From the NCBI GenBank assembly GCA_018829335.1, contig JAHJUD010000054.1:1-39916 (forward strand): a DNA stretch of 39,916 bases, in the 5' to 3' direction. Shown here piece after piece: positions 34,561 through 38,846 of the stretch. Each line of letters opens with the position of its first letter. Within the stretch, counting starts at the first letter, position 1. The stretch comes from Candidatus Micrarchaeota archaeon (GTDB lineage: Archaea; Iainarchaeota; Iainarchaeia; Iainarchaeales; 1-14-0-10-31-34). A program made the translations under genes and the position numbers. The notes beneath the pieces were generated by a model that saw nothing but the letters and a program-made list of their open reading frames with translations, was not told the origin of the DNA and ran no database searches.

Positions 34561-35091
34561 ATGAAAACAAGAGGAAAATTATTGCTAGTGCTTCTTGCAG
34601 CATTAATACTTTTATATTTTGTTTACGTTGAAGGAATATTCAATGTAGTTTCATTTGAAAATGGATTAGAAAAACTAAGTGCAATAGACCAGGAATTTGA
34701 ATTAGAAGGAAAACTTGTTCCAGCACAAAAAGAAAAAATAAGCCAATACAACACAAAACTGGTTGACCTGGAAACAGAATTAAGCAAAAAAACATCAAAT
34801 GAAGACATTAAGGCATTAAATTACTTGATTGATGCAAGAAAAGAACTTGTTTTAATGCAGCTGAATTTAATTGAATTCCAGGAAACAAGAGAATGCTCAA
34901 GACAACTTGAATTAATTGACTCAATAATGAGTTCAGCAGTTTCAGCAAGAGATTCAGTGCAAAACTACCTTACAAATTATTCTTCTTTTTCAGACAAAAC
35001 AACAGAATGGAATCAAAACGTTTTAGATACAACAAATTCTGTTGAGCTTTCATTCAGGGAATTGCAGGAAAGCATTTCACAAACTTGTTAA
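34561..35091 (+). CDS. Hypothetical membrane-anchored helical protein
   Basis: N-terminal TM/signal then amphipathic helices; two Cys. Confidence 0.7.
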   Translation: MKTRGKLLLVLLAALILLYFVYVEGIFNVVSFENGLEKLSAIDQEFELEGKLVPAQKEKISQYNTKLVDLETELSKKTSNEDIKALNYLIDARKELVLMQLNLIEFQETRECSRQLELIDSIMSSAVSARDSVQNYLTNYSSFSDKTTEWNQNVLDTTNSVELSFRELQESISQTC

Positions 35092-35114
35092 GCTTTTTCA
35101 CTTAAACTGTTTTT

Positions 35115-35717
35115 ATGAAAAAGCTTGTATTTGAAGGCGCAGAAGCAAGAACATATTTAACTGAATTCGATGGAAGACAGGCAATAGAAAAAAAAAGAAT
35201 CCCAAAAAAATACAGGCACAAAAAACTTGATGACAAAATAAGAAATACACGGACAAGAGATGAAGTTAATTTGCTTCACAAAGCAAAGCTTGCAGGAATA
35301 AGGACTCCAGTAATTTATTCAGTAGACAAAAAAAATTCAGTTATTGTAATGGAATACTTAAAAGCAAAAAAACTCAAAGAACAAATTAATTCAATGAAAA
35401 TAAAAAATTTCAGCCAAACAGGAAAAGAAATTGCATTGCTTCACAAGGCAGGAATCGTCCACGGAGATTTAACCACAAACAATATTCTTTTAGAAAAGGA
35501 AAAACTCTTTTTCCTTGATTTTGGGCTTGGATTTAACTCAAATAAAATAGAAGATTTTGCTGTTGACTTGCTTGGATTCAAAAAAACTTTTCTTTCAGGC
35601 AATCCTGAAAAAAGAAAAGAATGGAAGGAAATAGAAAAAGGCTATTGTTTCTGGGAAAAAAGAAAAGAAGTTATTGGCAGGATAAAAGACATTGAGAAAA
35701 GGGCAAGATACCTTTAA
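35115..35717 (+). CDS. bud32: KEOPS kinase/ATPase Bud32
   Basis: GAEA, K.R.PKKYRH..LD..IR..RT..E, HGDLTT.N, DFGL, EDFAVDL, IEKRARY. Confidence 0.95.
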   Translation: MKKLVFEGAEARTYLTEFDGRQAIEKKRIPKKYRHKKLDDKIRNTRTRDEVNLLHKAKLAGIRTPVIYSVDKKNSVIVMEYLKAKKLKEQINSMKIKNFSQTGKEIALLHKAGIVHGDLTTNNILLEKEKLFFLDFGLGFNSNKIEDFAVDLLGFKKTFLSGNPEKRKEWKEIEKGYCFWEKRKEVIGRIKDIEKRARYL

Positions 35718-35914
35718 ATCAGACTAATGTATAAAGACGGAAGAAAAAAATAAATAATAAAAAAATCAAGAATGTTTAACACAAGCTTGGCATGCGTTAA
35801 GCTTGTCATCCCCTAATTTGTATGTTGCAACGATTGATTAACCTATGATTATTGTTTCAGCGGCAATGCGGTCTCCCAAATAGTTTATTAATGAGTTTTC
35901 CGATTCTGTTGTAT

Positions 35915-36745
35915 ATGATGTATAACAGGCAGAAGCTTTTGCTGCAGGTTGTTAATAGTATGGCAGAAAAAGGAATTTCTTCCAAAACATTTTTAGTGAA
36001 AGCTGTGTTCTTGTTGAGGCAAAGGCTTGGATTTGAAAGCATTGGGTATGACTTCTTTCCATACAAGTATGGCCCTTTTTCTAATGTAATTTATGAGGAT
36101 TTTACTGCCTTAGAAAAAGAAGGCTTGTTTGATGAAGCTAATCTGTGCTTGACCAAAAACGGGAAAACTTTTGTTGATTCATTAAAAAAAAGCAATGAAG
36201 TTTCTTCTGAAATACAAGGCATTCTTTCCAATTTTTCCGGCACCTTAAAAATAAAGAGTTTTGTTTATGAAAATTACCCGGAGTTTACTGTCCGCAGCAC
36301 TTCCCAAAAAAAAGAGGCAGTAAAAGAAAATGGTTTTTGTTCCATTGGTTATGAAGGCAAGACCATTGATTCTTTTTTGAATGAATTAATCCAGCATAAT
36401 GTTTCCTTGCTTGCTGATGTAAGGCAAAATGCCTTTAGCATGAAAAAGGGATTTTCCAAGAGCCTGTTGAAGAATTACCTTGAAAAGGCAGGCATTGCTT
36501 ACCTGCATTTTCCTGAACTTGGCATTGAATCTGAAAAAAGAAAAGGCCTGAATTCTGCTGCAGATTACAAGGAATTATTTGAGGATTACAGGAAAAACCT
36601 GCCTGCAAAAAAAGAGAAAGTTGCAGAGGTTAAGGAATTAAGTAAAAGTGAAAAAGTTGCTTTGATGTGTTTTGAGGCTGACAAGAATTTTTGCCATCGC
36701 GGGGTTTTAGCAGATTTCTTAAATGCAGAGGTTGTTCACATTTGA
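35915..36745 (+). CDS. DUF488 family protein with N-terminal wHTH (Panacea/YwgA-like) domain
   Basis: N-terminus K..FLL...YDFFPYKYGPFS..IY.D...L...G; C-terminus SIGYEG, LADVR, S.K.GFSK, YLHFPELG, LMCFE....CHR; TATA-like TTTATTAA at 35884 suggests a start at 35915/35918. Confidence 0.85.
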   Translation: MMYNRQKLLLQVVNSMAEKGISSKTFLVKAVFLLRQRLGFESIGYDFFPYKYGPFSNVIYEDFTALEKEGLFDEANLCLTKNGKTFVDSLKKSNEVSSEIQGILSNFSGTLKIKSFVYENYPEFTVRSTSQKKEAVKENGFCSIGYEGKTIDSFLNELIQHNVSLLADVRQNAFSMKKGFSKSLLKNYLEKAGIAYLHFPELGIESEKRKGLNSAADYKELFEDYRKNLPAKKEKVAEVKELSKSEKVALMCFEADKNFCHRGVLADFLNAEVVHI

Positions 36746-37509
36746 AGGAAAAAATCCTGGTTCTCGCAAAAACATATCCAAATCTTAGCAGGAAGTATGT
36801 TGAAACAGTGTGTGTTGCAGGAATCACTAATAAAGGGGAATGGAGGCGCCTTTACCCGATTCCTTTCAGGAAGCTTCCTTTTATTCAGCGTTTTAAAAAG
36901 TTTGAATGGATTGAAGTTGAAACAATAAAAAACACTAAAGAGAAGCTACAGCGAAAAGAATCCTGCAAGGCTGATGCTGGCTCAATAAAGGTTTTAGGCA
37001 ATGTTGGAACGGGTTTTAATCGTAAATGGAATGAAAGAAACCGGCTTTTGCTTTCTCATGTGAATAAATCCCTTGAAGACTTGGAAGAGCAAAAGAAAAG
37101 CAGGAAAGTTTCCTTGGGGTTAATCAAGCCTGCTGAATTAATGGATTTTACTTTGACTCCTTTGGAGGAATGCCGCGACTGGGAAAAAGATTTAATTAAG
37201 GGAACACAAAAAACATTATTTGGGAATTATAATTCTCCATTAGACCGGATTCCATGGAAGTTTTCCTATGTTTTTAAGTGCAATGATTCAGAATGCAAAG
37301 GGCATTGTTTGATGTGCGAAGACTGGGAACTTCTTGAATCATGGCGTTCTTGGAAAAACAAGTACCAAAACGAAACTCTTTTGTGGGAAAAAATAAAGCA
37401 AAAGTATTTTGAATGGATGAAAAACAGAAACCTGCATTTTATTGTTGGCACTGAATCAAGATTCAACAAATTTCTCATAATCGGGCTTTATTATCCGCCA
37501 AAATTGTAA
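36742..37509 (+). CDS. Conserved hypothetical DUF488 partner (dual-OB-like) protein
   Basis: TTG start overlapping the DUF488 TGA (TTGA), GAGGT SD; KTYP...Y.ETVCVAG....EWRRLYP, SLGLIKP, C..x.C..H....DWE, IIGLYYPPK. Confidence 0.8.
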   Translation: MKEKILVLAKTYPNLSRKYVETVCVAGITNKGEWRRLYPIPFRKLPFIQRFKKFEWIEVETIKNTKEKLQRKESCKADAGSIKVLGNVGTGFNRKWNERNRLLLSHVNKSLEDLEEQKKSRKVSLGLIKPAELMDFTLTPLEECRDWEKDLIKGTQKTLFGNYNSPLDRIPWKFSYVFKCNDSECKGHCLMCEDWELLESWRSWKNKYQNETLLWEKIKQKYFEWMKNRNLHFIVGTESRFNKFLIIGLYYPPKL

Positions 37510-37658
37510 CCCATTTTTTATGCAGATGTGGTGAAGGCCCGAAAAAAGCTATAAAAACCTAATGTTTCAGAAATAATAGTATACAAGCATTTGATTAGTG
37601 CTGTTTTTTAATGCATTTTTTTGTTGTTAAAAATTATTGTGTAAAGGAGTAGATTTAA

Positions 37659-38114
37659 TTGGCTAGAATTCATGGAAGAAGCAAAGGAAAAAGCGGTTCA
37701 AAAAAACCGGTAAAAAAAATTCACCCTGAATGGGTTGAATTAAAACCAAAAGAAATAGAAGAAAAAGTGGCTGAATTAGCACATAAAGGCAATACTGCAG
37801 CAGAAATAGGAAAAATTTTAAGGGATGTTTATGCTGTTCCGTCAGTGAAAACTGCAACAAAAAAGAAAATTCAGAAAATAATTGAAGACGCAGGAATAAA
37901 ACAGGATTTTCCAAGAGACTTGCTTAATTTGATTAGAAAATCAGTGAATGAAAAAAAGCATTTTGAATCAAACAAGCATGACAAAACAGCCCAAAGAGGT
38001 TATAGGTTAACTGTTTCTAAAATCAGAAGATTAGCGAAATATTATTCAAAAAAAAGAAAAATCCCTGAAGGCTGGAGATATTCAGAAGAAGAAGCAGAAC
38101 TAATGGTGAAATAA
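37659..38114 (+). CDS. rps15: 30S ribosomal protein uS15
   Basis: MARIH...GKSGSKKP, IG.ILRD.Y, H...NKHD..A.RG..L..SKIRRL.KYY; TTG start after GGAG. Confidence 0.96.
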   Translation: MARIHGRSKGKSGSKKPVKKIHPEWVELKPKEIEEKVAELAHKGNTAAEIGKILRDVYAVPSVKTATKKKIQKIIEDAGIKQDFPRDLLNLIRKSVNEKKHFESNKHDKTAQRGYRLTVSKIRRLAKYYSKKRKIPEGWRYSEEEAELMVK

Positions 38115-38221
38115 TGCAGTATTCAATGAAAATTAAAACAAAAAATTTTGAAAAAAAAGCTGCAGGAAATTCACTTAAAGAAATGCTTGAACAAGGCGAA
38201 AAAATAATTCAGGAAATGTGA
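38114..38221 (+). CDS. 35-aa possible truncated KEOPS Pcc1 (not in ORF track)
   Basis: MQYSMKIKTKNFEKKAAGNSLKEMLEQGEKIIQEM; TAATG coupling to uS15; occupies the usual pcc1 position upstream of rps3ae; AA.NS resembles the Pcc1 C-terminal helix. Confidence 0.5.
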   Translation: MQYSMKIKTKNFEKKAAGNSLKEMLEQGEKIIQEM

Positions 38222-38225
38222 TTTA

Positions 38226-38846
38226 ATGGCAAAAAAAGAAGTAAAAGAAGCAAAAGAAAAACCAAAAAAAGTTGATTCAAGAAGGACAACAGATAAATGG
38301 AAGAAAAAAAAATGGTTTACTATTTTTGCACCAAAAATGTTTGACCAAAAAGAAATAGGAGAAACAGTTGCAGAAAAACCTGAAACATTAATTAACAGGA
38401 CAATAAATTTAAGTGCAAGAGACTTAACAGGAAACCCGAAAAAACAGCACATAAGCCTGCACTTTAAAATCTATGACGTGCAAGGGCTTAAAGCATACAC
38501 AAAGTTAACAGGCCATGAAATCAACCCTAATTTTTTGAAGAGAATTATCAGGAGAAGGATAAGCAAAATGGAAACAGTACAAGTTGTTAATTTAAGAGAC
38601 GGAGAAAAAGCAAGAGTCAAAACAATTGTTGTTTCAGGAAAAAAATTAACAAAAATAAAAGAGACTGCAGTAAGGAAAATAATGATGGAAAAAATAGCTT
38701 ATGCTTCAAAAAAAAGAGACTTTGATGATTTTGTAAACGAAATGGTTTTTGGGAATATTGCATTCAAAATACAAAATGAAGCAAAAAAAGTTGGTTTGAT
38801 TAAAAGAATTGAAATAGTTAAAACAAAATTAATTGAAGGTAAGTAA
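38226..38846 (+). CDS. rps3ae: 30S ribosomal protein eS1 (S3Ae)
   Basis: DKWK.K.WF.I.AP..F...IGET.A..P..L..R, L.FKI..V.G..A.T...GHE. Confidence 0.96.
   Translation: MAKKEVKEAKEKPKKVDSRRTTDKWKKKKWFTIFAPKMFDQKEIGETVAEKPETLINRTINLSARDLTGNPKKQHISLHFKIYDVQGLKAYTKLTGHEINPNFLKRIIRRRISKMETVQVVNLRDGEKARVKTIVVSGKKLTKIKETAVRKIMMEKIAYASKKRDFDDFVNEMVFGNIAFKIQNEAKKVGLIKRIEIVKTKLIEGK

Follow-up and report, generated by a model that had tools for sequence, protein, structure and literature searches.

The locus between bud32 and rpS15 in the genome of a Candidatus Micrarchaeota archaeon holds two additional genes, named here gene A and gene B, and raises the question of what these genes are, how they reached this site and which function they may have. 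The window, i.e. the whole stretch of DNA that was analysed, comprises 39,916 nucleotides (contig JAHJUD010000054.1, assembly GCA_018829335.1). An original prediction, made from the sequence of the window, had described the pair as a candidate DNA-lesion or anti-virus system of horizontal origin.

Organisation of the locus

The locus contains the following features.

35115..35717, + strand: Bud32/RIO-type small kinase, left flank (Pfam RIO1 1.3e-12, Pkinase 2.4e-12); housekeeping, outside the cassette
35718..35848: left junction DNA, A-rich, unlike both the intergenic region of relatives and the cassette
~35781-35806: hairpin with an 11-bp stem, within the left junction DNA
35849..35914, + strand: cassette-borne promoter region; nucleotide homology to cassette copies elsewhere begins at 35849/35856
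35884-35891, + strand: TATA-like TTTATTAA, 23 nt upstream of the gene A ATG
35915..36745, + strand: gene A, 276 aa, ATG start
36742..37509, + strand: gene B, 255 aa, TTG start
37541..37578, + strand: conserved, TATA-containing rpS15 upstream block, located directly after bud32 in 5/5 same-genus genomes
37659..38114, + strand: rpS15, right flank (Pfam Ribosomal_S13_N 8.2e-22, Ribosomal_S15 4.4e-12); housekeeping, outside the cassette

Both genes are intact and carry all the motifs quoted in the original prediction, at the same positions (35915-36745 and 36742-37509). The TGA stop of gene A and the TTG start of gene B share the letters TTGA at 36742-36745, and this 4-nt overlap is the layout on which translational coupling had been proposed. 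The public call of the gene B protein (P0003) is likewise 255 aa long. The predicted TATA box is also present upstream of gene A, and the octamer TTTATTAA is the same in five of six aligned sequences, namely the window and five cassette copies elsewhere; the sixth, from locus L007, has a shifted TTTATAAA in its place. This TATA-like region is expected to have promoter activity. Pfam identifies the flanks, in agreement with the proposed placement, as a Bud32/RIO-type kinase and rpS15, the latter followed by rpS3Ae and then DUF92. The Bud32 orthologue is found in 5/5 same-genus genomes with 67-71% identity.

The stability of the hairpin upstream of gene A is no greater than that of shuffled sequences (z -1.54). 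The search with Rfam over 35000-38300 returned only chance-level matches, far under the gathering scores, and no NCBIfam model matched the gene A or the gene B protein. A short resemblance was seen between 35850-35860 and positions 37560-37570 of the rpS15 upstream block. Contigs assembled from sequencing runs of two other studies match both junctions without differences (X6 over 35400-36755, X5 over 36283-37572), which rules out a chimeric assembly as the source of this gene order.

Gene A, a Panacea-like domain fused to DUF488

Gene A encodes two domains, with the following features.

35915..36289, + strand: N-terminal domain, residues 1-~125, Panacea/DarG-C-terminal-like, helical winged-helix
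36047-36082, + strand: YDFFPYKYGPFS, residues 45-56, invariant Y.F.P..GP.S motif
36329..36742, + strand: DUF488 domain, residues ~139-276 (Pfam DUF488, DUF488-N3a)
36416-36424, + strand: D168-V-R170
36668-36670, + strand: C252, start of C252-F-E
36692-36700, + strand: C260-H-R262

The protein matches the PADLOC model PDC-M19A (PDLC04505) at 5e-77, with residues 2-271 aligned to model positions 1-283 of 294, and 323 homologues have an identical architecture. In the predicted structure (pLDDT 93.3), the N-terminal domain resembles Panacea and the C-terminal part of DarG by fold. Among PDB structures, the DarTG complex 7yk3 (chains D/B) is closest to it by fold (prob 1.00, TM(target) 0.47), and positions 161-229 of the PADLOC DarG model weakly match residues 2-73 (E 0.0056). 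The Pfam model SocA_Panacea (PF13274) gave 14.6 bits (E 0.064), under its cut-off of 25.7 bits. Hence, the Panacea-type N-terminus that had been predicted holds by fold but not by sequence score.

The DUF488 domain, which had been described as intact, exceeds the Pfam cut-offs with 103.5 bits for DUF488 (22.2 required) and 37.7 bits for the active subclade DUF488-N3a (27 required), whereas the inactive N3i model gives 16.8 bits and stays under its cut-off of 27. Residues D168, R170, C252, E254, C260, H261, and R262 are invariant across 31 sequences, and all of them are kept in the window protein. The domain matches PTP/DSP folds in the PDB (prob 0.8-0.99); C252 ends a strand and the loop closes with C260-H-R262, with D168/R170 completing the site. 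The DUF488 domain of gene A is an intact, active-type site of the cysteine-phosphatase fold, and this predicted fold and the motif suggest phosphatase-type chemistry. To our knowledge, no activity has been demonstrated for the large DUF488 family. The Pfam search detected no macrodomain in gene A, and the gene A profile found only chance-level matches among PDB sequences, i.e. no solved relative by sequence.

The N-terminal modules of the DUF488 partners differ among loci, being Panacea-like in the window, MazE/AbrB in locus L017, and ParB_N plus HTH_ParB in locus L072. These modules are interchangeable domains of DNA-binding or antitoxin type. An archaeal ParB-CTPase fusion termed 'DUF488-HTH' is described as binding CTP (bioRxiv 10.1101/2025.10.10.680097).

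Gene B, a tandem-OB protein

Gene B, whose relatives form 1904 clusters, has the following conserved features.

36811..36813, + strand: Cys24, invariant in 68/68 sequences
37279..37329, + strand: C180-x4-C185-x2-H188 and D194-W-E196

Similar to gene A, gene B matches a PADLOC model, PDC-M19B (PDLC04508), at 2.2e-66, with residues 2-254 aligned to model positions 3-262 of 269. The original prediction of an OB-like N-terminus, with CVAG...WRRLYP at residues 24-39, was borne out and extends further: in the predicted structure (pLDDT 93.3) two OB folds of the RPA, telomere-end-binding, or HIN type make up the entire protein. The PDB fold matches include RPA, TEBP-alpha, CST, HIN-200, and LEF-3 (E 4e-5 to 1e-3, prob 0.9-0.99). 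Residues C180, C185, and H188 are conserved in 65, 58, and 63 of 68 sequences, and the DWE motif in 66/68 (D194), 67/68 (W195), and 65/68 (E196). From this pattern, Cys24 is a candidate fourth ligand of a putative Cys3-His metal site. Invariant basic and aromatic residues were K10, Y12, R36, R71, W96, and R99, and we infer that gene B binds DNA.

Gene B itself does not match Pfam DuOB (PF22557) at E<=1. Three relatives with 51-55% identity, P0026, P0030, and P0043, reach 29.3, 25.6, and 25.5 bits at a cut-off of 27, and two others, P0005 and P0012, have no match. The gene B profile gave only chance-level matches to PDB sequences, with no solved relative by sequence. One natural DUF488-DuOB fusion of 409 aa (P0269) exists. 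The search for longer fused relatives of gene B scored none, which is weak evidence because this 409-aa fusion turned up among the representatives. The prediction of a complex of gene A and gene B gave a score of 0.00, below the mark, and speaks neither for nor against binding.

The two PDC-M19 models were thus matched at full length by adjacent genes on the same strand. The pair is a copy of the widespread, already catalogued candidate PDC-M19 and is no new kind of system. The novelty implied by the original prediction does not stand. The prediction had itself named a match to a characterised system as evidence against it, and PADLOC together with Pfam (DUF488-N3a and, through relatives of gene B, DuOB) provides half of this, a match to a system that is catalogued but is itself only a candidate.

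Insertion and mobility of the cassette

The GC3 of gene A (0.357) and gene B (0.379) are the highest values in the window, the other 45 ORFs having 0.232 +/- 0.033 (maximum 0.317), which corresponds to z-scores of 3.8 and 4.4. The lower A-skew noticed earlier is true as a value (0.015 for gene A and 0.10 for gene B, mean 0.254) but lies within the spread (z -0.9 and -0.6).

The horizontal acquisition that had been proposed agrees with the related genomes. The pair is missing from the bud32-rpS15 site in 5/5 same-genus genomes, where bud32 leads straight into rpS15, and one same-genus genome carries a different gene inserted between the two. Gene B is present in 3 of 41 related genomes, its own genome counted, and was detected in 0/5 same-genus and 0/3 further same-family genomes searched. 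The cassette recurs together with ~60 bp of its own promoter in other contexts, at 65-77% nucleotide identity. These results support the horizontal acquisition of a ~1.66-kb cassette, composed of its own archaeal promoter and two overlapping genes, between bud32 and rpS15. The bud32-rpS15 interval is a recombination-prone spot and an insertion hot spot, and the insertion is bounded on the right by the rpS15 upstream block (37541..37578), which directly follows bud32 in the same-genus relatives.

No convincing direct or inverted repeats flank the insert. The tRNA scan of the whole window detected no tRNA, and the window therefore has no tRNA-linked integration site. The reads provided no same-strain contig joining bud32 directly to rpS15. 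In run X5, a 227-nt contig joins a bud32-like end to the rpS15 leader, but its sequence differs from that of the window, and it is therefore from a relative.

The pair also occurs in twenty-three plasmid records, eleven of which are conjugative, in seven records of temperate Gordonia phages, and on IMG/VR contigs. The gene A and gene B proteins each match, at full length, PHROG families of unknown function. The pair moves among archaea, bacteria, plasmids, and temperate phages. In phage Nymphadora it has the immunity repressor on one side and the integrase on the other; gene 43 is on the same strand as the immunity-repressor gene, follows it and touches its end. In the accessible text of the Gordonia phage CarolAnn paper, Nymphadora serves only as target phage and genes 42 and 43 are not assayed.

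Linkage and gene neighbourhood

Of 80 related loci, 76 have a DUF488 gene directly beside the gene B homologue, and two of the four remaining loci are cut by contig ends. Gene A is upstream in sixty-nine of the seventy-six pairs and gene B in four, and three pairs are convergent. Twenty-one of the seventy-six DUF488 partners lack the Panacea-like domain, and some are a bare DUF488 of 150-180 aa.

The pair has type I restriction-modification (R-M) genes next to it in 10/80 loci, with HsdR immediately upstream in six, and ~70/80 loci have no type I R-M gene among the annotated neighbour clusters. Six of the 146 immediate neighbours match type I REase models, whereas the families listed for 150 distal genes include no such model; this descriptive comparison covers, for both sets, the 25 families with the most members, and draws on loci that are not independent. 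Genes of PDC-S01 and Schlafen/AlbA_2 recur close to the pair. Many copies, including that of the window, are found amid housekeeping genes such as SHMT and aminoacyl-tRNA synthetase. There is no conserved third gene across the loci; the largest neighbour cluster comprises nine loci, with a DDE transposase as representative, and in seven loci a DDE transposase directly adjoins the pair.

Proposed role and alternative explanations

The designation of the pair as a candidate defence unit fits these results. The reading that we tentatively put first, at somewhat less than an even chance, is that the transferred PDC-M19-type cassette acts as a DNA-directed conflict module, which combines an OB sensor with a predicted phosphate-directed DNA-end enzyme. 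The ~70/80 loci with no type I R-M gene among the annotated neighbour clusters, and the many copies in housekeeping surroundings, speak against this reading. The pair would be an anti-virus or anti-mobile-element module, in which invading or replicating DNA is recognised by the OB protein through exposed single-stranded stretches or ends, and these are handed to DUF488. The latter would remove or transfer a terminal phosphate or sugar-phosphate group, and the processed end would then be blocked from replication, ligation, or packaging. The active site of gene A sits behind an N-terminal domain of a kind found in antitoxins and DNA-binding proteins; this domain may tether the enzyme to DNA or to the gene B protein, and would probably autoregulate the operon.

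The same domain is the starting point for a toxin-antitoxin or addiction module similar to DarTG, which we regard as improbable. Here, the gene B protein would arrest growth by coating or blocking single-stranded DNA at forks, and gene A would be the antitoxin, with the N-terminal domain binding the gene B protein and DUF488 reversing the damage; such a module would stabilise mobile elements and may abort infection. The best PDB match of the N-terminal domain to the DarTG complex, its weak similarity to the PADLOC DarG model in the C-terminal part of the latter, the MazE/AbrB antitoxin-type domain on other gene A variants, the antitoxin-first order with overlapping genes in 69/76 pairs, and the presence of the pair on plasmids and prophages are in agreement with this explanation. 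However, gene B has two OB domains and no recognisable toxin fold, the Panacea-like domain is missing from 21/76 partners, some of them bare DUF488, and a DUF488-DuOB fusion in a single polypeptide would be unusual if the two were toxin and antitoxin.

To a similar degree unlikely is a role in accessory DNA repair, where an SSB/RPA-like protein would bring to damaged host DNA a phosphatase that cleans DNA ends, e.g. those with a 3'-phosphate or an adduct, and the distribution would be patchy because the function is useful but dispensable. An RPA-like fold next to a PTP-fold enzyme, the housekeeping neighbourhoods at many loci, and the intact cassette of the window with every conserved residue present point in this direction, whereas the strong mobility, the phage and plasmid carriage, the copies located within type I R-M loci, and the antitoxin-type domains are unexpected for a repair function, and the pair is missing from 8/8 other same-family genomes searched.

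A more novel reading, which we consider decidedly unlikely, is a new class of immunity based on reversible 'marking' of DNA ends or single-stranded DNA, with a DarTG-like build and different chemistry. In that case, the OB effector would lock onto viral replication intermediates, DUF488 would be a cysteine-dependent phosphotransferase or phosphatase that adds a terminal phosphate-linked group to DNA or removes it, and the N-terminal domains (Panacea-like, MazE/AbrB, ParB-CTPase) would be off-switches in uninfected cells.

Finally, plasmid and phage carriage suits a function serving the element equally well, and conjugative plasmids (11/23 records), the location beside the integrase in temperate phages, the DDE transposase as immediate neighbour in seven loci, and the ParB-type N-terminal domains would agree with protection or processing of single-stranded or terminal DNA belonging to the element (in transfer, replication, or integration) or with countering host restriction, but we hold this for very doubtful, as the cassette stands without other element genes here and at many loci and the position of Nymphadora gene 43 points to expression in the lysogen, not during transfer.

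Significance

The strictly linked OB partner is the clearest handle on the substrate of DUF488, proposed to be DNA. The pair is common in archaea, for which a survey describes few recognised defence systems and urges archaeal-specific discovery (PMC12988326). The window provides a natural 'before and after', with empty sites in 5/5 congeners, a promoter-bearing cassette, and a defined hot spot, and the analysis also yields a catalogue of partner-domain swaps. The value of the window copy is that of an experimental lead, not of a discovery.

Comparison with known systems

PDC-M19 is one of 145 'guilt-by-embedding' candidates catalogued as 'untested' (Payne et al., bioRxiv 10.1101/2024.01.29.577857), the PDCs being described there as single- and multi-gene candidates, defined through their position inside BREX, DISARM, and type I R-M loci. 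The literature search revealed no paper naming PDC-M19; judged by title, none of the DUF488 papers among the matches listed concerns this pair, and none of those on DuOB is relevant. Similar to PDC-M19 in PADLOC-DB v2, related loci of the pair are embedded in type I R-M systems. There is no structural difference, and the window copy lies in a DPANN-type archaeon, alone amid housekeeping genes.

Gene A passes the cut-off of Pfam DUF488-N3a (PF22751), and the model of gene B is tandem OB like DuOB, which comes near its cut-off only in relatives. Both families are said to originate from work of Burroughs and Aravind in 2023, which reportedly predicted DNA-end processing in conflict systems. Gene A also matches the PADLOC models PDC-M45B (6.3e-16) and PDC-M45C (7.9e-12); the window locus has a single DUF488 gene, with an N-terminal Panacea-like domain.

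With DarTG the pair shares an N-terminal domain resembling the DarG chain of 7yk3, the combination of a toxin-binding-type domain with an enzyme domain potentially reversing a nucleic-acid modification, and a proposed action on, or proximity to, single-stranded-DNA binders. The absence of an adjacent DarT-like toxin, stated in the original prediction, was confirmed: the neighbours are the kinase and rpS15, and no DarT model matched gene A or gene B. The pair differs from DarTG in lacking the DarT ADP-ribosyltransferase and the macrodomain, and in having an enzyme of phosphatase/rhodanese fold and an OB protein as partner.

The RPA, telomere-end-binding, and HIN-200 binders are the top fold matches of gene B, with low TM-scores (0.2-0.43) and no sequence similarity. 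Unlike these binders, gene B possesses the Cys3-His set, the DWE motif, and the obligatory pairing with DUF488.

Gene content

The gene pair is encoded between a kinase gene and a ribosomal protein gene, in the following arrangement:

35115-35717: left flank, Bud32/RIO-type small kinase (bud32)
35915-36745, plus strand: gene A, DUF488 gene, intact, 276 aa (protein P0001)
36742-37509, plus strand: gene B, tandem-OB gene, intact, 255 aa, TTG start
37659-38114: right flank, ribosomal protein S15 (rpS15)

The start codon of gene B (TTG) and the stop codon of gene A (TGA) overlap as TTGA, and the public protein call for gene B, P0003, has equal length (255 aa). All motifs quoted for both genes by the original prediction were found where it had placed them. 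Further upstream are genes for DnaJ and two small proteins without annotation, and further downstream those for S3Ae and a DUF92 membrane protein. Contigs from sequencing runs of two other studies reproduced both junctions in the window exactly.

The DUF488 protein

Gene A matches Pfam DUF488 with 103.5 bits (cut-off 22.2) and the Pfam model of the active DUF488-N3 subclade with 37.7 bits (cut-off 27); its score for the inactive subclade model is below the cut-off. An alignment of 31 full-length relatives showed D168, R170, C252, E254, C260, H261 and R262 to be invariant, as is the N-terminal motif Y.F.P..GP.S. The DUF488 domain is intact, as predicted, with scores above the Pfam cut-offs and all active-site residues kept. 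In the confident AlphaFold model (pLDDT 93.3) a strand ends at C252 and the next helix begins with the C-H-R triplet, which is, as modelled, the geometry of a cysteine phosphatase. The C-terminal half also has fold matches to atypical dual-specificity and PTP-fold phosphatases in the PDB (prob 0.8-0.99).

Chains D/B of the DarTG complex 7yk3 gave the best PDB fold match of gene A, covering its N-terminal half (prob 1.00, 151 columns, TM on target 0.47), and residues 2-73 align with positions 161-229 of the PADLOC DarG model (E 0.0056). Since Pfam SocA_Panacea gave only 14.6 bits (cut-off 25.7), the proposed Panacea or antitoxin-type winged helix is valid at fold level, but not as Pfam membership. 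Residues 25-129 of P0001 also match positions 431-546 of 554 in the PADLOC Specificity_I model PDLC03184 (E 1e-6). This match lies in the C-terminal tail of the model and suggests a fused Panacea-like domain in some HsdS proteins.

The tandem-OB protein

Gene B itself matches no Pfam and no NCBIfam model. Its family is large: a word-indexed search gave 453 matches, and an exhaustive search with a limit of E<=0.001 gave 1904 clusters. Pfam DuOB ("Dual OB-containing domain") matches three relatives of 51-55% identity with 29.3, 25.6 and 25.5 bits (cut-off 27), and gave no match in two closer relatives. The model of gene B (pLDDT 93.3, pTM 0.90) matches the folds of archaeal and eukaryotic RPA, the Oxytricha telomere-end-binding protein, CST, HIN-200 domains and baculovirus LEF-3 (E 4e-5 to ~1e-3, prob 0.9-0.99, TM 0.2-0.43), all tandem-OB DNA binders, in agreement with the predicted OB-like character.

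Among 68 sequences, P13, C24, R36, P39, R71, R99 and G236 are invariant, conservation is 90% or more for K10, Y12, S16, S74, W96, C180, H188, D194, W195 and E196, and C185 is kept in 58. The conserved basic and aromatic residues would lie on the usual OB binding face, and C24, C180, C185 and H188 form a putative metal site.

Linkage of the two genes

We surveyed 80 loci encoding gene B relatives in archaeal and bacterial genomes. A DUF488 gene directly adjoins the gene B relative in 76, located upstream on the same strand in 69, downstream on the same strand in four, and convergent in three. Two of the other four loci end at a contig edge (L011, L070), and two truly lack a DUF488 gene (L024, L043). 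The DUF488 and gene B families are a strictly linked pair, and no conserved third gene was found beside it in the 80 loci.

Fifty-three DUF488 partners possess the full gene A architecture, and 23 match the DUF488 part only, two of them clipped by contig ends. The N-terminal module is MazE/AbrB in a Thermoplasmataceae locus and ParB_N with HTH_ParB in an Asgard locus; it is missing from the phage copies and unrecognised in the Micrarchaeota copies. A preprint describes an archaeal ParB-CTPase "DUF488-HTH" fusion that binds CTP (bioRxiv 10.1101/2025.10.10.680097).

Two variants were also observed. In the archaeal locus L043 (8979-9992, plus strand) a ParB_N-ASCH gene replaces DUF488 upstream of the DuOB gene, possibly as a functional replacement of the enzyme partner. 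The metagenomic representative P0269 (409 aa) carries DUF488-N3a (residues 14-133) and a dual-OB part (152-405) in one polypeptide, being either a natural fusion of both genes or a read-through gene call.

Insertion between bud32 and rpS15

Gene B was found in three of 41 related genomes, including its own. It was detected in none of the five same-genus genomes (81-96% complete) and none of three further same-family genomes, and is present in two of 32 other genomes of the order, adjoined by a DUF488 gene in both. The order hyp176-bud32-rpS15-rpS3Ae is kept in all five same-genus genomes, together with more flanking genes within reach of the fetched 3.6-kb loci. The bud32-rpS15 spacing is 126-137 bp in four of the five, in contrast to 1941 bp in the window.

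The closest copies of the cassette, with protein identities of 65-80% (B) and 55-75% (A) and nucleotide identity of 65-77%, are located in other MAGs, where none of the genes flanking the cassette in the window is present. Nucleotide homology extends from 35849/35856 to 37503/37521; therefore, the cassette includes ~60 bp upstream of gene A, shared among the copies, with a conserved TATA-like TTTATTAA. This agrees with the TATA box of its own predicted for the pair. In GC3 both genes exceed all others in the window (z 3.8 and 4.4). Their lower A-skew, also proposed, is real but no outlier in the window. The cassette is an insertion, and its absence from the same-genus genomes, the copies elsewhere and the outlying GC3 support the predicted horizontal acquisition.

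The site itself looks like an insertion hot spot. In the same-genus genome G002, a 176-aa Methyltransf_11-like gene is inserted at exactly this spot (L086:2073-2738), flanked by a ~70-nt direct duplication (85-98% identical) of the bud32 3' end and the rpS15 upstream block. A groundwater sequencing run of another study (X5), also containing the window sequence, yielded a 227-nt contig of a related population at window 37543-37684, in which a bud32-like 3' end leads directly into the rpS15 leader, an empty site.

An imperfect palindrome (35781-35806; 11-bp stem, 4-nt loop) lies downstream of the bud32 stop and ahead of the cassette promoter. It occurs neither in the intergenic region of the relatives nor in other copies of the cassette, and might be either a terminator or a relic of the junction. 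Upstream of rpS15, ~100 nt ahead of the TTG start, all six genus genomes conserve a TATA-containing block with a short hairpin and a T-run behind it (37541-37610 in the window). This stretch is possibly a leader of the ribosomal-protein operon or has a regulatory role there. In the window its fold is no better than shuffles, and it has no Rfam match.

Restriction systems, plasmids and phages

Type I R-M genes adjoin the pair in ten of the 80 loci, with HsdR as the immediate upstream gene in six and HsdM and HsdS beside the pair in others. PDC-S01 genes are near the pair in five loci, Schlafen/AlbA_2 genes in three, and seven loci have a DDE transposase directly beside it; other loci have housekeeping surroundings. 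Among 146 immediate neighbours, 191 PADLOC families were matched at 1e-10 and six proteins match type I REase models. Ninety families were matched by 150 genes eight or nine positions off, each by at most two proteins, and the 25 families listed include no type I REase. This contrast is no more than a hint.

Gene B relatives are present on 23 plasmid records (eleven conjugative; Sulfolobus and Rhizobium plasmids included), on IMG/VR contigs, and on seven records of Gordonia CZ1 temperate phages. PHROG families of unassigned function match both window proteins full-length. In phage Nymphadora, gene 43 (DuOB) is encoded directly downstream of the immunity repressor, in the same orientation, and is convergent with gene 42, with the integrase nearby:

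L095:4819-5271, minus strand: gene 42, 150-aa DUF488 protein, DUF488-N3a (Pfam 1.2e-29), annotated "HipA toxin, toxin-antitoxin system?"

Judged by its domain match, the HipA annotation looks wrong, and genes 42 and 43 are a prophage-borne candidate.

Predicted function and comparison with known systems

The enzyme encoded by gene A is of the active type, has a cysteine-phosphatase fold and is tethered to a domain of DNA-binding or antitoxin type; its tandem-OB partner is obligatory. The pair is mobile and shows a partial association with restriction systems and with the immunity regions of prophages. Our tentative reading, held at somewhat below an even chance, is a conflict module. The OB protein would recognise single-stranded DNA or DNA ends of the invader, DUF488 would next process a terminal phosphate-linked group, leaving the invader DNA unusable, and the N-terminal domain of gene A would serve tethering and autoregulation. 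A toxin-antitoxin pair like DarTG, the complex matched by that domain, is unlikely, and an accessory end-cleaning repair module is equally doubtful. Less likely still is that the pair serves the mobile element itself.

The pair was catalogued in earlier work. The Pfam names DUF488-N3a, DUF488-N3i and DuOB presumably originate from Burroughs and Aravind in 2023, who reportedly predicted that this clade processes DNA ends in conflict systems. Both window proteins match the two-component PADLOC phage defence candidate PDC-M19 full-length (gene A 5e-77, gene B 2.2e-66), a name not found in the literature searched. According to Payne et al. (bioRxiv 10.1101/2024.01.29.577857), the PDCs are 145 single- and multi-gene candidates, explicitly untested, selected because they are found inside loci of BREX, DISARM or type I R-M systems. 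The observation behind the original prediction was confirmed, and its reading is largely right, but the system was already in PADLOC. The window pair, which merits experiment on DUF488 chemistry, is a further copy of this catalogued, uncharacterised candidate system rather than a new discovery.
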